Origin: a virus
Taxonomy: Duplodnaviria > Heunggongvirae > Uroviricota > Caudoviricetes
Strand: one strand, 5' to 3'
DNA length: 45,588 bases
IMG/VR virus record: IMGVR_UViG_2531839665_000023
Shown piece by piece: positions 36,227 to 45,588 of this stretch. Below the pieces are notes generated by a model. The model saw only the letters and a list, made by a program, of their open reading frames with translations. It had not been told where the DNA came from and made no database searches. The translations under genes were made by a program, and so were the position numbers. Numbering within the stretch: the stretch's first letter is position 1; each line of letters starts with the position of its first letter.

Positions 36227-39628
<3,402 letters not shown>

Positions 39629-39694: not shown

Positions 39695-40294
39695 ATGCGT
39701 AAACTTTATGCCGCCATTTTGTCCGCAGCCATTTGTCTGGCCGTATCCGGTGCGCCTGCATGGGCGTCTGAACATCAGTCCACGCTGAGCGCGGGGTATC
39801 TTCATGCCTCGACGAACGTTCCCGGCAGCGATGATCTGAACGGGATTAACGTGAAATACCGTTATGAGTTTACGGACACACTGGGGATGGTGACGTCATT
39901 CAGCTATGCAGGAGACAAGAATCGCCAGCTGACCCATTACAGCGATACCCGCTGGCATGAAGATTCCGTTCGTAACCGCTGGTTCAGCGTAATGGCGGGG
40001 CCGTCTGTGCGCGTGAATGAATGGTTCAGCGCGTATGCGATGGCGGGTGTGGCTTACAGCCGTGTGTCGACTTTCTCCGGGGATTATCTCCGCGTAATTG
40101 ACAACAAGGGGAAAACGCACGACGTGCTGACCGGAAGTGATGACGGTCGCCACAGCAACACGTCTCTGGCGTGGGGAGCTGGCGTGCAGTTTAACCCGAC
40201 CGAATCCGTGGCCATTGATATTGCTTATGAAGGCTCCGGCAGTGGTGACTGGCGCACTGACGGTTTCATCGTGGGTGTCGGTTATAAATTCTGA
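39695..40294 (+). CDS. lom: Lom/Ail-family outer membrane beta-barrel protein
   Basis: 199 aa; signal peptide ending AWA; beta-barrel C-terminal GYKF. Confidence 0.9.
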   Translation: MRKLYAAILSAAICLAVSGAPAWASEHQSTLSAGYLHASTNVPGSDDLNGINVKYRYEFTDTLGMVTSFSYAGDKNRQLTHYSDTRWHEDSVRNRWFSVMAGPSVRVNEWFSAYAMAGVAYSRVSTFSGDYLRVIDNKGKTHDVLTGSDDGRHSNTSLAWGAGVQFNPTESVAIDIAYEGSGSGDWRTDGFIVGVGYKF

Positions 40295-40320
40295 TTAGCC
40301 AGGTAACACAGTGTTATGAC

Positions 40321-40348
40321 AGCCCGCCGGTTCAGGCGGGCTTTTTTG
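40321..40348 (+). terminator. Intrinsic terminator after lom
   Basis: GCCCGCC-GGTTCAG-GCGGGC followed by TTTTTT. Confidence 0.75.
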
Positions 40349-40358
40349 TGGGGTGAAT

Positions 40359-43300
40359 ATGGCAGTAAAGATTTCAGGTGTACTGAAAGACGGCACAGGA
40401 AAACCGGTACAGAACTGCACAATCCAGCTGAAAGCAAAACGTAACAGTACCACTGTGGTGGTGAACACGCTGGCCTCAGAAAATCCGGATGAAGCCGGGC
40501 GTTACAGCATGGACGTTGAGTACGGTCAGTACAGCGTTATTCTGTTGGTGGAGGGATTCCCGCCGTCACATGCCGGGACCATCACCGTGTATGAAGATTC
40601 TCAACCCGGTACGCTGAATGATTTTCTCGGTGCCATGACGGAGGATGATGCCCGTCCGGAGGCACTGCGTCGTTTTGAACTGATGGTGGAAGAGGTGGCG
40701 CGTAACGCGTCCGTGGTGGCACAGAACACGGCAGCCGCAAAGAAGTCAGCCAGTGATGCCAGCACATCTGCCAGTGAGGCGGCAACCCGTGCGACTGATG
40801 CTGCAGATTCAGCACGTGCAGCCAGCACGTCAGCCGGACAGGCCGCGTCGTCGGCTCAGTCAGCGTCTTCCAGCGCAGGAACGGCATCAACAAAGGCCAC
40901 TGAAGCCTCAAAAAGTGCTGCCGCTGCAGAGTCCTCAAAAAGCGCGGCGGCTACCAGTGCCGGTGCGGCGAAAACGTCAGAAACGAATGCGGCAGCGTCA
41001 GAACAATCAGCCGCCACTTCTGCATCCACCGCGACCACGAAAGCGTCAGAAGCTGCCACCTCAGCCAGGGATGCGTCGGCTTCAAAAGAGGCGGCAAAAT
41101 CATCAGAAACGAACGCATCATCAAGCGCCAGTAGTGCAGCTTCCTCGGCAACGGCGGCAGGAAATTCCGCGAAGGCGGCAAAGACGTCTGAGACAAACGC
41201 CAAGTCCTCTGAAACGGCAGTAGCACAGAGTGCCTCAGCTGCGGCAGGCTCAAAAACAGCGGCTGCATCATCTGCCAGTGCCGCGTCAACAAGTGCCGGG
41301 CAGGCCTCAGCCAGTGCCACCGCCGCCGAAAAATCGGCAGAAAGCGCCGCATCATCCGCTTCAACAGCCACAACGAAGGCTGGCGAAGCCACTGAGCAGG
41401 CCACGGCAGCAGCGAGGTCAGCTTCCGCAGCGAAGACATCCGAAACGAACGCGAAAGCGTCGGAAACCCGTGCAGAATCCTCAAAAACGGCAGCGGCATC
41501 GTCCGCCAGTTCGGCGGCGTCATCGGCATCATCGGCGTCTGCTTCAAAAGATGAGGCGACCAGACAGGCGTCAGCAGCGAAGGGCAGCGCCACGACGGCA
41601 TCCACGAAGGCGACAGAGGCAGCTGGTAGTGCGACGGCAGCAGCTCAGAGCAAAAGTACGGCGGAATCTGCAGCAACACGCGCTGAGACAGCGGCAAAAC
41701 GGGCAGAGGATATTGCATCCGCCGTGGCGCTTGAGGATGCGAGCACGACGAAAAAGGGGATAGTACAGCTCAGCAGTGCGACCAACAGTACGTCTGAAAC
41801 GCTGGCGGCAACGCCAAAGGCAGTAAAATCAGCCTATGACAATGCAGAGAAACGTCTGCAGAAAGACCAGAACGGCGCTGATATACCCGATAAGGGACGC
41901 TTCCTGAACAACATTAACGCGGTCAGTAAAACAGACTTTGCTGATAAGCGTGGTATGCGTTATGTGCGGGTTAACGCTCCTGCAGGTGCAACATCTGGAA
42001 AATATTACCCTGTTGTTGTTATGCGTTCTGCTGGCTCAGTAAGCGAACTGGCATCAAGGGTCATTATCACCACGGCAACGCGAACCGCAGGCGATCCGAT
42101 GAATAACTGCGAGTTTAACGGATTTGTTATGCCTGGTGGCTGGACTGACAGGGGGCGTTATGCTTATGGAATGTTCTGGCAATATCAAAACAATGAACGA
42201 GCCATCCACTCAATAATGATGAGTAATAAGGGCGATGATTTGCGCTCTGTGTTCTATGTTGATGGCGCTGCTTTCCCTGTTTTTGCGTTTATCGAAGATG
42301 GCCTGTCAATATCCGCACCTGGTGCTGATCTCGTTGTTAATGATACGACCTATAAGTTTGGGGCAACAAATCCAGCGACTGAATGTATCGCGGCGGACGT
42401 TATCCTTGATTTTAAGAGTGGGCGTGGTTTTTATGAGTCTCATTCGTTAATCGTTAACGATAACTTGTCGTGCAAAAAACTTTTTGCCACAGACGAAATT
42501 GTAGCGCGTGGTGGTAATCAGATTCGAATGATAGGTGGGGAGTATGGTGCATTATGGCGTAATGATGGCGCTAAAACTTACCTGCTGCTTACCAATCAAG
42601 GTGATGTTTATGGTGGCTGGAATACATTAAGACCGTTTGCTATTGATAACGCAACCGGCGAGCTGGTTATTGGAACCAAACTGTCCGCAAGTCTGAACGG
42701 TAATGCATTAACAGCAACAAAGCTGCAAACGCCAAGACGGGTTTCTGGTGTTGAGTTTGATGGTTCCAAAGATATTACTTTAACCGCCGCGCATGTGGCT
42801 GCTTTTGCCAGAAGAGCAACGGATACGTATGCCGATGCGGATGGGGGCGTTCCATGGAATGCCGAATCAGGCGCTTACAATGTCACCCGCTCTGGCGACA
42901 GCTATATTCTGGTTAACTTCTATACCGGAGTCGGAAGTTGCCGGACCCTGCAGATGAAGGCGCATTACAGAAATGGAGGTCTGTTCTACCGTTCCTCAAG
43001 AGATGGCTATGGTTTTGAGGAAGACTGGGCAGAAGTTTATACCTCGAAAAATCTTCCACCAGAAAGCTACCCAGTCGGCGCACCAATCCCGTGGCCATCA
43101 GATACCGTTCCGTCTGGTTATGCCCTGATGCAGGGGCAGACTTTTGACAAATCTGCATACCCGAAACTTGCAGCCGCTTATCCGTCAGGCGTGATCCCTG
43201 ATATGCGTAGCTGGACGATTAAGGGCAAACCTGCCAGTGGTCGGGCCGTATTGTCTCAGGAACAGGACGGCATTAAATCGCACACCCACAGCGCCAGCGC

Positions 43301-43712
43301 ATCCAGTACGGATTTGGGGACGAAAACCACATCGTCGTTTGATTACGGCACTAAATCCACGAATAACACCGGGGCGCATACGCACAGTGTGAGCGGTACA
43401 GCCGCAAGTGCCGGAAACCATACTCATAGTGTCACAGGCGCATCAGCAGTCAGCCAGTGGTCACAAAATGGGTCAGTACATAAGGTAGTGTCTGCGGCCA
43501 GTGTGAATACAAGTGCTGCAGGAGCGCACACTCATAGTGTTAGCGGCACAGCCGCATCTGCAGGTGCTCACGCACATACTGTCGGTATTGGTGCTCATAC
43601 GCACTCTGTTGCGATTGGCTCACATGGACACACTATCACCGTTAACGCTGCTGGTAACGCGGAAAACACCGTCAAAAACATCGCATTTAACTACATTGTG
43701 AGGCTTGCATAA
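40359..43712 (+). CDS. stf: Side tail fibre protein Stf
   Basis: N-terminus [24 protein letters not shown] as lambda Stf; long Ala/Ser-rich repeat region; C-terminal His-rich HTHS repeats. Confidence 0.9.
40700..41720 (+). repeat. Degenerate tandem repeats inside stf encoding Ala/Ser-rich motifs (AAKTSETNA and similar)
   Basis: Repeated GCC/GCG/TCA-rich units; spawn many spurious ORFs in other frames on both strands. Confidence 0.6.
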
Positions 43713-44287
43713 TGGCATTCAGAATGAGTGAACAACCACGGACCATAAAAATTTATAATCTGCTGGCCGGAACTAATGAATTTATTGGTGAAGGTGACGC
43801 ATATATTCCGCCTCATACAGGTCTGCCAGCAAACAGTACCGATATTGCACCGCCAGATATTCCGGCAGGCTTCGTGGCTGTTTTCAACAGTGATGAGGCA
43901 TCGTGGCATCTCGTTGAAGACCATCGGGGTAAAACGGTTTATGACGTAGCGTCAGGGGACGCGTTATTTATTTCTGAACTCGGTCCGTTACCGGAAAATG
44001 TTACCTGGTTATCGCCGGAAGGGGAGTTTCAGAAGTGGAACGGCACAGCCTGGGTGAAAGATGCAGAAGCAGAAAAACTGTTCCGGATCCGGGAGGCGGA
44101 AGAAACAAAAAACAGCCTGATGCAGGTAGCCAGTGAGCATATTGCGCCGCTTCAGGATGCTGCAGATCTGGAAATTGCAACGGAGGAAGAAATCTCGTTG
44201 CTGGAAGCATGGAAAAAGTATCGGGTATTGCTGAACCGTGTTGATACGTCAACTGCACAGGATATTGAATGGCCAGCACTGCCGTAG
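43712..44287 (+). CDS. tfa: Tail fibre assembly protein Tfa
   Basis: 191 aa; near-identical to lambda Tfa as recalled ([24 protein letters not shown]); TAATG overlap with stf stop. Confidence 0.9.
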
Positions 44288-44384
44288 GGTAAAACATATA
44301 AATTCTATAATTAGATGTATCTTTCCATTTACGGCAAGGAAGGGGGCTTGGAAGACGTAAAGCATCTCACACCAAGATTATTTT

Positions 44385-44975
44385 TTATATGTCAGGTGTC
44401 TGAAGTTTTGCTTTGGCTCTTAAAATGGTTTGCCGCGAGGTTTTGAATTCCCGGGCAATGGCACTTATACTTACACCTGACTTAATCCGTTCGAATACCA
44501 CCTGTTTCTGTTCTTCATTTAACACAGGTGGTCGACCAAAACGTTTCCCTGCGCCCCGGGCTCTTACTATCCCGGAATGAGTGCGTTCAAGTAAAAGGTC
44601 TCGTTCAAATTCAGCGACTGCTGAAATTACTTGCATCATCATTTTTCCTGTTGGACTGGTCAGGTCAATGCCCCCCAATGCTAAGCAATGCACTCTGATA
44701 CCTGTTTCGGTCAGTTGTTCCACTGTTTTCCTGATATCCATTGCATTACAACCAAGGCGATCCAGTTTTGTCACAATCAATTGATCACCACATTTCAGGC
44801 GAGCAAGCAACCGGTTAAAACCAGGACGCTCACTGGTTGCTGCTGAGCCGCTAATGTGTTCTTCGATTATTTGCTGAGGTTTGATTTTAAAACCTGCACT
44901 TTCGATTTCCCGGCGTTGATTTTCGGTGGTCTGATCCAGCGTTGATATCCGACAGTAAGCAAAAATTCGAGACAT
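44385..44975 (-). CDS. pin: Serine recombinase, DNA invertase Pin/Hin/Gin family
   Basis: 196 aa; N-terminal catalytic Ser region ([12 protein letters not shown]) and C-terminal HTH. Confidence 0.93.
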
Positions 44976-45354
44976 AGTGAGACTCTATACGAAATTGGTG
45001 TACATATCATAATGCATATCCAAAAATTATTTCGCTTATTATTGTACATATTTGTATGTATACGTTCGAAAATAAACGAATTCGGATGCAGTCCCGTAAT
45101 TTTGGTGTAACCAAAAATCGATTTTTTGAAAAATGGCTTTAACTCGGTTTGTTTTTCGAACTCCGGGCGGACTCGAGGAAGACGAATAATAGTGTTGTAT
45201 GTTATTTCAACCAGATTTTAAGTTGTTTGGTCGTGGAAAAGTGGAGCAAAATGTTGTTAAAGTGGAAAAATGGTAAAAAAAGTAGGTTGTTGCGGAATAA
45301 CGTAGTTGTTGATATTTTTTTAATGCATTGAAAAATTATTTTTCAGGGGGGGTA

Positions 45355-45588
45355 TTACACTTTACCATTTAAATTTTGGTTGTCTTTAAGAACTGATATC
45401 GCTGTTTGTAATAATTCTTTGTTATCCAGCCATGACTTTTTCTTTATGTTTCCTTCAATGTAATCAAGCAATGTTCTGGTATTGATAGGTCTTCCCTGTT
45501 TTGCTACTTCCACGACAGCATCTCCCAGGATAATTCTGACTTCAGGAAGCTGCGCAGGGAACCACTTTAGGGTGTCTTTTGATTTCAT
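45355..45588 (-). CDS. YdfK/YnaE-like small prophage protein
   Basis: 77 aa, complete (start codon at window edge); MKSKDTLKWFPAQLPEV matches Rac/Qin YnaE/YdfK as recalled. Confidence 0.6.
   Translation of the reverse strand: MKSKDTLKWFPAQLPEVRIILGDAVVEVAKQGRPINTRTLLDYIEGNIKKKSWLDNKELLQTAISVLKDNQNLNGKV

Follow-up and report, generated by a model that had tools for sequence, protein, structure and literature searches.

The gene pin (44385-44975, minus strand) of an Escherichia coli lambdoid prophage, represented here by a 45,588-nucleotide stretch of viral DNA (Caudoviricetes; IMG/VR record IMGVR_UViG_2531839665_000023; in the following the window, meaning this stretch at its full length), is most probably the tnpR gene of an 834-bp relic of a Tn3-family transposon, rather than a Din-type invertase that has lost its invertible segment. 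This reading concerns the identity as well as the origin of the element and is based on sequence comparison. It differs from a first-pass annotation of the same DNA, in which pin was regarded as an intact Pin-family recombinase without an evident tail-fibre segment to act upon. A resolvase acts on a pair of res sites that are direct repeats within one molecule; an invertible cassette is not its substrate, and nothing invertible would therefore be expected beside pin.

Structure of the element and its relatives

Relatives of pin were gathered from one scan of species-representative genomes, plus plasmids. In Shewanella glacialipiscicola (L013), a homologue with 77 % identity is encoded divergently from a transposase of 1033 amino acids (Pfam DDE_Tnp_Tn3, 1.4e-148, plus DUF4158); both genes are part of a 9.4-kb element bounded by 38-bp terminal repeats (GGGGTCCGCTTGGAAAACGGAAAATATCCTACGCTAAG) and a 5-bp target duplication (TAGAT). 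A homologue on a Klebsiella plasmid (L031) adjoins a transposase fragment that is 92 % identical to the L013 transposase, and the E. coli plasmid pS84-1 (L030) presents the architecture of the prophage element in intact form. The prophage element spans 44342-45175 and is composed of a terminal repeat, tnpR, the res site (subsites III, II and I), a tnpA remnant and a second terminal repeat. Together with the flanking target-site duplication, the following features were assigned:

44337-44341, plus strand: target-site duplication AGGAA, left copy; an identical pentamer abuts both outer ends of the element.
44342-44376, plus strand: decayed Tn3-family terminal inverted repeat, tnpR side; 27/35 match to GGGGTCCGCTTGGAAAACGGAAAATATCCTACGCTAAG with a 3-bp deletion; outer GGGG towards tfa.
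44385-44975, minus strand: pin, small serine recombinase and tnpR homologue; 196 amino acids, the same protein as K-12 PinR; Cys76 at the position equivalent to R71 of Tn3 resolvase.
44986-45007, minus strand: res subsite III, two direct half-sites TATACGAAA and TGTACATAT; placed by colinear alignment, 20/22 identical to pS84-1.
45006-45011: putative -10 hexamer TATGAT, abutted by subsite III with a 2-bp overlap; assigned by homology.
45017-45048, minus strand: res subsite II, 32 bp, inverted half-sites TGTACAATA and TATCCAAAA (7/9 each); placed by colinear alignment.
45063-45088, minus strand: res subsite I, homologue of the 26-bp crossover site of 12-2-12 layout; decayed half-sites CATCCGAAT (6/9) and CGTTCGAAA (7/9).
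45089-45142, plus strand: junction spacer and 3' remnant of tnpA (...VTKNRFFEKWL*); the frame closes at a TAA located within the inner end of the repeat, and the stretch holds a near-palindrome.
45138-45175, minus strand: decayed terminal inverted repeat, tnpA side (IR'); 26/38 ungapped match to IR' of pS84-1 (GGGGTCAGTTTGGAATTCGGAAAATAAACCATGTTAAG); outer end towards ydfK.
45176-45180, plus strand: target-site duplication AGGAA, right copy; with a reconstructed empty-site query, both halves align through the shared AGGAA.

The stretch homologous to pS84-1 starts and stops at the outer ends of the two repeats. The repeat at 44342 (plus strand) is the top match to the family repeat in the whole 45.6-kb window when both strands are scanned, has the expected orientation and lies 8 nt from the stop codon of pin, a spacing identical in pS84-1. 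Likewise, 45138-45175 (minus strand) is the top match to IR' in the whole window and is oriented as expected. The flanking AGGAA (TTCCT in the sense of pin) is kept in all three diverged prophage lineages examined, including the K-12-type and the O103 lineage. A further repeat-like match at the left end of the window (~40-83, score 14) was judged on inspection to be fortuitous.

The frame ending in FEKWL stops inside the repeat, as does the transposase frame of L013 (...KKQA*, TAG). The stretch between IR' and site I therefore represents the last ~16 codons of tnpA. A tblastn search with the L013 transposase as query revealed no transposase remnants in the window at E<=1e-3.

The present structure may be pictured as follows: a Tn3-family relic would have transposed between tfa and ydfK of a lambdoid phage, thereby duplicating the 5-bp target AGGAA, and nearly all of tnpA would have been deleted, leaving ~16 codons of its 3' end and a non-autonomous element. 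Within the prophage lineage, the recombination machinery would have decayed by drift of res I and II and by replacement of the R71 equivalent by Cys76, while the protein, its helix-turn-helix (HTH) domain and an operator-like site III at the promoter were kept, possibly for self-regulation by DNA binding.

Affiliation of the pin product

The pin product is identical to PinR of E. coli K-12 (196/196 amino acids) and consists of an N-terminal catalytic domain (Pfam Resolvase, 2.5e-36) and a C-terminal HTH domain (HTH_7, 3.8e-11). It shares 59-83 % identity with TnpR proteins of Tn3-family transposons and plasmids (77 % with that of Shewanella L013, 83 % with the pS84-1 resolvase) and 32 % with TnpR of Tn3. 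Identity to the invertases PinE, Gin and Cin amounts to only 35-38 %, compared to 77-82 % among these three. In a neighbour-joining tree, the pin product nests within the TnpR relatives beside the pS84-1 copy, with PinE, Gin and Cin forming a separate clade. Thus, the designation as an intact Pin-family recombinase holds as far as the open reading frame (ORF) is concerned, but is at odds with the low identity to PinE, Gin and Cin and with Cys76 at the position of the catalytic Arg71.

In a scan against NCBIfam, no model reached its cutoff with the pin product (invertase model 85 bits versus a cutoff of 272), and its best sequence match in the PDB is Gin (105 bits; gamma-delta resolvase 83). 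Homologues of the pin product occur in ~1858 plasmid records, and res-tnpR modules without transposase are common on plasmids.

The res site upstream of pin

The 128 bp located 5' of pin align without internal gaps (except for 2 nt beside the ATG) to the intergenic region of eight relatives. The latter contain six half-sites of the type TGTMCGAAA within ~103 bp, arranged as (i) a 26-bp palindrome of 12-2-12 layout (site I, the presumed crossover site), separated by a 14-bp spacer from (ii) a 32-bp inverted pair (site II), and (iii) a direct pair (site III) that abuts a TATAAT-like -10 hexamer. This arrangement of three dimer-binding subsites 5' of tnpR would follow the logic of Tn3-type res sites, with res probably doubling as the operator of tnpR.

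In the window, the half-sites score 41/54 against the consensus, compared to 38/54 for the K-12-type allele and 48-52/54 for the transposon and plasmid copies. Five of the six deviate from the consensus at two or more of nine positions, III-b being the only half-site within one mismatch of TGTMCGAAA. The position of site I reads TGTCCGAAACCG-NN-CGGTTTCGTACA in functional relatives. Upstream of pin, identity to pS84-1 declines with increasing distance from the gene, being 20/22 at site III, 22/32 at site II and 15/26 at site I; the coding region is ~83 % identical. The TATGAT promoter predicted by homology was missed by a simple sigma-70 scan, and a second copy of the family's half-site cluster was not found in the window.

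Search for an invertible segment and the near-palindrome

That neither an inverted copy of a crossover site nor an alternative fibre cassette accompanies pin had already been stated in the first-pass annotation and is borne out here. The longest inverted repeat within 40000-45588 comprises 28 nt at 71 % and is at chance level. The distance between tfa and pin, previously given as about 100 bp, was measured as 97 bp, and there is no inverted tfa'/stf' cassette. A search for gix/hix/pix-like sites with three patterns (AAACCNNGGTTT, the e14 repeat and a 26-bp degenerate consensus) yielded no such site and nothing above chance.

The near-palindrome reported upstream of pin is also present (CCAAAAATCGATTTTTTG, 45111-45128); it is self-complementary at 16/18 positions and occurs only once in the window (chance expectation 0.09). 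It can, however, no longer be regarded as the only site-like element, since the res-like array at 44986-45088, the two remnants of terminal repeats and the 5-bp duplication occur as well. Nor does its position fit that of the crossover site, as it lies within the 3' remnant of tnpA, 22 bp outside res site I. Two other assignments were considered for the palindrome. Based on its resemblance to hix/gix and to site I of Mycoavidus it was tried as res site I and rejected, because the colinear alignment places site I at 45063-45088. Its interpretation as an RNA hairpin or terminator was likewise abandoned (z-scores of -0.3 to -0.8; no terminator found).

The two alleles of the palindrome in the window and the K-12 type (CAAAAAATCGATTTTTGG and CACAAAATCGATTTTGGG) are distinguished by a pair of mirror-image exchanges, A:T to C:G. 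Such a double difference leaves the symmetry intact, which is no more than suggestive. Motifs resembling CCAAAAWT are found four times within ~110 bp of this region; no function was found for the palindrome.

Decay and retention

The catalytic set of Tn3 resolvase (Y6, R8, S10, D36, R68 and R71) is represented in the pin product by Y7, R9, S11, E39 and R73, with Cys76 at the R71 equivalent. Among 15 conserved polar residues studied in Tn3 resolvase, 14 are kept, the R71 equivalent (CGT to TGT) being the exception. Cys76 is shared by the window, K-12 PinR and the O103 prophage lineage (85 % identity); all 15 comparison sequences (transposon, plasmid, Din invertases and Tn3) have Arg at this position. 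In Tn3 resolvase, the exchanges R71A and R71K abolished recombination and slowed cleavage ~1000-fold, whereas DNA binding was not prevented (PMC2794168).

The coding region itself is under purifying selection. The ratio of nonsynonymous to synonymous substitution rates (dN/dS) was 0.37 when two prophage lineages were compared and 0.15 for the comparison with a plasmid copy. The two prophage lineages differ by 25 synonymous versus 33 nonsynonymous changes (neutral expectation ~14 versus 44) and have reached a dS of 0.21 without a stop or frameshift in pin; dS relative to the coding region of pS84-1 is 0.61. The conserved parts of the element are the ORF, the HTH domain, subsite III and the adjoining putative promoter. 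The half-sites of res I and II have drifted, and for the crossover site and site II this drift looks roughly neutral.

Of 5426 complete E. coli genomes, 2872 carry the element, as do 11 records of isolated temperate phages, among them HannyBb, Turner, 2H10, mEp460 and Tritos. The insertion is an old one, fixed in all cases in which the tfa and ydfK flanks are found together.

Possible functions of the pin product

At native expression, the pin product may now act chiefly by binding DNA and regulating its own gene, with little if any activity as a recombinase, a proposal which we consider evenly balanced. Recombination function would be lost or strongly weakened because sites I and II drift, the catalytic Arg is lost and the prophage offers no partner res site.

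Several points weigh against a decayed transposon relic with an inactive resolvase. An empty site, i.e., tfa joined to the ydfK side without the element (3' end of tfa ...CGGCAAGGAAGACGAATAATAG... ydfK side), was found neither in 5426 E. coli genomes nor in 50,697 phage records, and the insertion is accordingly deduced from structure rather than seen as a polymorphism. Matches to the terminal repeats reach only 68-77 %, and the divergence between the two ends exceeds what is usual within a single transposon. A retained enzymatic role would also agree with the purifying selection on the ORF. The R71 mutants of Tn3 resolvase were described as "not inert" (PMC2794168), so that Cys76 may weaken rather than abolish catalysis. 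Finally, overproduction of PinQ resulted in 88 % inversion of the P segment of prophage e14, and deletion of pinQ lowered inversion (PMC12529663), which implies some recombinase-related activity despite Cys76.

The latter study (Kirigo et al., Nucleic Acids Research 2025; PMC12529663), in which PinQ and PinR are treated as equivalent, describes inversion of the 1797-bp P segment of e14 in trans, yielding StfE2, a chimeric fibre protein from stfP/stfE that blocks adsorption of T2. It invites the view that pin encodes a working orphan invertase with the P segment of e14-like prophages as its physiological target, which nevertheless appears unlikely. In its favour, the pinQ deletion reduced both inversion and T2 survival, the PinQ effects depended on stfP, stfE and e14 (PMC12529663), and the protein of the window is identical to K-12 PinR. 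Moreover, site I of the family has a half-site (TGTCCGAAACC) similar in sequence to those of pix (TCTCCCAAACC and TCTCGAAAACC) and gix (TATCCAAAACC), and the 12-2-12 layout is alike as well, rendering binding of pix by a protein of this family plausible. Yet the residue replaced by Cys76 is one that Tn3 resolvase needs for catalysis. Resolvase-type enzymes (Tn3, gamma-delta) normally also require accessory subsites and directly repeated sites, which counts against a trans-acting invertase. Furthermore, a pinE mutant was locked in one orientation with pinQ and pinR intact, pointing to PinE rather than PinQ or PinR as the invertase at native level, and the 88 % bias is unlike a simple invertase, PinE having given 49 % inversion (PMC12529663). 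Modulation of PinE-driven inversion by a weakly catalytic DNA-binding protein fits the published data at least as well as direct catalysis. The earlier suggestion that Pin is orphaned or acts in trans is thus upheld insofar as no partner site exists in cis and action in trans agrees with these data (PMC12529663); its premise of a Din/Pin invertase that has lost its segment is not.

Along these lines, one may speculate that PinR/PinQ-type proteins are resolvases domesticated by lambdoid phages, which have forfeited most of their catalytic power (Cys76), still bind DNA sequence-specifically and serve as modulators rather than enzymes; we regard this generalization as quite improbable. Such modulation could proceed (i) by binding of pix/gix-like half-sites (T-TCC-AAACC), thereby skewing the orientation that is brought about by a true invertase (e.g., PinE), or (ii) by regulation of neighbouring phage genes from the decayed res site. 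Route (i) would explain the 88 % bias upon overproduction together with the locked pinE mutants.

Two further possibilities take the locus on its own. Pin and res may still resolve dimers of the circular phage genome or tandem prophages, in analogy to the orphan res-tnpR modules of plasmids. An open ORF under purifying selection, a complete colinear res site upstream, the frequency of transposase-free res-tnpR modules on plasmids and the carriage of the element by viable phages agree with a working phage resolvase, but five of the six half-sites are off consensus, decay is strongest at the crossover site I (15/26 identity to pS84-1), the K-12-type allele has decayed even further, and Cys76 is present in addition. 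Moreover, an integrating lambdoid phage is not known to need dimer resolution, and we consider this role very improbable. A functionless relic that hitch-hikes as junk in a successful phage module, its ORF being open only for want of time, is doubtful, too, if the least so of these alternatives. The decayed terminal repeats and res site, the loss of tnpA and of the catalytic Arg, the frameshifted pseudogene copies in L023 and L024 (see below) and the relaxed selection compared to plasmid copies (dN/dS 0.37 versus 0.15) are all consistent with it. Against it stand the divergence of the two prophage lineages (dS 0.21) without stop or frameshift, the ratio of 25:33 changes compared to ~14:44 under neutrality, and the much better conservation of subsite III and the putative promoter (20/22) relative to sites I and II, as well as the phenotypes reported for pinQ deletion (PMC12529663).

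Comparison with known systems

The closest known counterparts are PinR (b1374, Rac prophage) and PinQ (b1545, Qin prophage) of E. coli K-12. Together with the AGGAA duplication, the element shares 96.9 % identity with the K-12 type, but the pin-ydfK intergenic region of the window is a different allele with a slightly less decayed res site (41/54 versus 38/54), and its gene resides in an apparently full-length prophage beside prfC, in contrast to the K-12 copies in cryptic prophages. The present analysis is a re-reading of a known and very common E. coli prophage gene, an annotation correction rather than a new system. In the literature on PinR and PinQ, no paper was found that describes them as Tn3-family relics.

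With Tn3, gamma-delta and the L013 module, the element shares an HTH_7 serine recombinase and a res site 5' of tnpR with three subsites beside a putative promoter; the 38-bp repeats of GGGG...TAAG type, the 5-bp duplication and, in its relatives, a divergent tnpA are likewise Tn3-family features. It differs from Tn3 in belonging to another TnpR subgroup (32 % identity to Tn3 TnpR) and in the direct instead of inverted orientation of the half-sites of subsite III, and from a complete Tn3-family module in the reduction of tnpA to ~16 codons, the decay of the repeats and of res I and II, and Cys in place of the R71 equivalent.

Hin, Gin, Cin and PinE resemble the pin product in being small serine recombinases of similar length encoded beside tail-fibre genes, with a 12-2-12 site and half-sites of the type T-TCC-AAACC. 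The locus nevertheless lacks the inverted crossover sites and the inverted stf'/tfa' cassette of the Din systems (Mu G, P1 C, e14 P), and e14 and D108 show the full stf-tfa-tfa'-stf'-pin/gin layout, unlike the window. Moreover, the accessory subsites II and III are a resolvase feature that sets the element apart from Din invertases. Similarity also exists to non-autonomous Tn3-family derivatives, i.e., TIMEs and related elements without transposase (Szuplewska et al. 2014; PMC4133298). Like these, the prophage element is short, has Tn3-type repeats and a 5-bp duplication, lacks a transposase and would depend on being moved in trans; TIMEs carry no genes, unlike the prophage element with its res and tnpR.

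The element occurs in more than half of complete E. coli genomes, where its gene is annotated as "putative DNA invertase" or "serine recombinase PinR", and the name PinR has been propagated onto transposon resolvases of resistance plasmids. Automated annotation also names the resolvase beside Tn5403 "pinR" (PMC13253593), which may serve as a lead. If these genes are indeed relics of Tn3-family resolvases, the long-standing question why an invertase should lack an invertible segment no longer arises. Cys76 also bears directly on the 2025 claim that PinQ is the enzyme flipping the P segment of e14 in anti-phage defence, which thereby becomes testable. For the window itself, the finding is otherwise ordinary, namely a mobile element that was inserted into the accessory region of a lambdoid prophage and has decayed.

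Observations on database relatives

Three contigs of metagenome-assembled genomes labelled Alistipes, Draconibacterium and Caldithrix (L005, L008 and L009; ~2.3, 2.5 and 31 kb) encode proteins 99-100 % identical to E. coli PinR. These almost certainly represent contamination of the bins by E. coli prophages, and the "trematode" match to PinQ quoted in PMC12529663 probably has the same cause. The database proteins P0004-P0008 are chimeric, with an N-terminal third of plasmid type (Arg76) and a remainder of prophage type. They may be real plasmid/prophage recombinants or assembly artefacts; most are located on single short metagenome contigs, and P0008 is recorded on a 5.4-Mb E. coli contig at NCBI.

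In Erwinia oleae (L017, 1268-2652), two divergent PinR-family genes, whose products are 72 % and 78 % identical to the protein of the window, flank a perfectly mirrored array of site III', site II', a single site I, site II and site III. A crossover at site I between two res sites in inverse orientation would be expected to produce such an array. This suggests that the PinR family mediated at least one inversion, or else that the array is a product of intramolecular transposition. Second copies of the element were observed in Shigella flexneri (L023) and E. coli ECGI0523 (L024); their protein was matched only in segments (best 73 % and 57 %, respectively), and with indels in the res region they look like frameshifted pseudogenes. 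The DNA directly outside the terminal repeat of pS84-1 (L030, 6638-6646) reads AAGGAAGAC and the flank outside IR' in the window (45176-45183) reads AGGAAGAC. This 8-bp coincidence adjoins different ends of the element; target preference or chance are both possible.

Locus and flanking genes

The window comprises an apparently full-length lambdoid prophage of E. coli that adjoins prfC, with the integrase at its left end. J (36230-39628), lom, stf (40353-43712) and tfa (43712-44287) follow each other on the plus strand, and pin (196 amino acids, minus strand) is convergent with tfa. The tested 1.9 kb of the window are 100 % identical to several E. coli chromosomes, in which the right end of the prophage is formed by ydfK, ynaM/ynfT and a dinI-like gene, followed by the host gene prfC. 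The neighbourhood stf-tfa-pin-ynaE/ydfK-ynaM is common to the window and the PinR locus of K-12. Two phage genes outside the element flank it directly:

43712-44287, plus strand: tfa, tail fibre assembly (Pfam Caudo_TAP, 2.1e-43).
45355-45588, minus strand: cold-shock gene of ydfK/ynaE type, according to the annotation in identical genomes.

In phage HannyBb (L002, 6600-8200), the last ~100 bp of tfa are kept beside the pin element, and the set of fibre genes upstream is different and shorter. From this it may be concluded that the pin element and its flanks travel as a block, recombining with different fibre modules. The pin ORF of the window is 100 % identical at the nucleotide level to those of HannyBb and of an E. 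ruysiae prophage (L002/L004), the pin-ydfK intergenic region (44989-45350 of the window) is ~88 % identical to both with an indel of ~60 bp, and identity rises again to 98-100 % in ydfK. The region thus forms a sharp mosaic, with two old intergenic alleles between recently shared genes.

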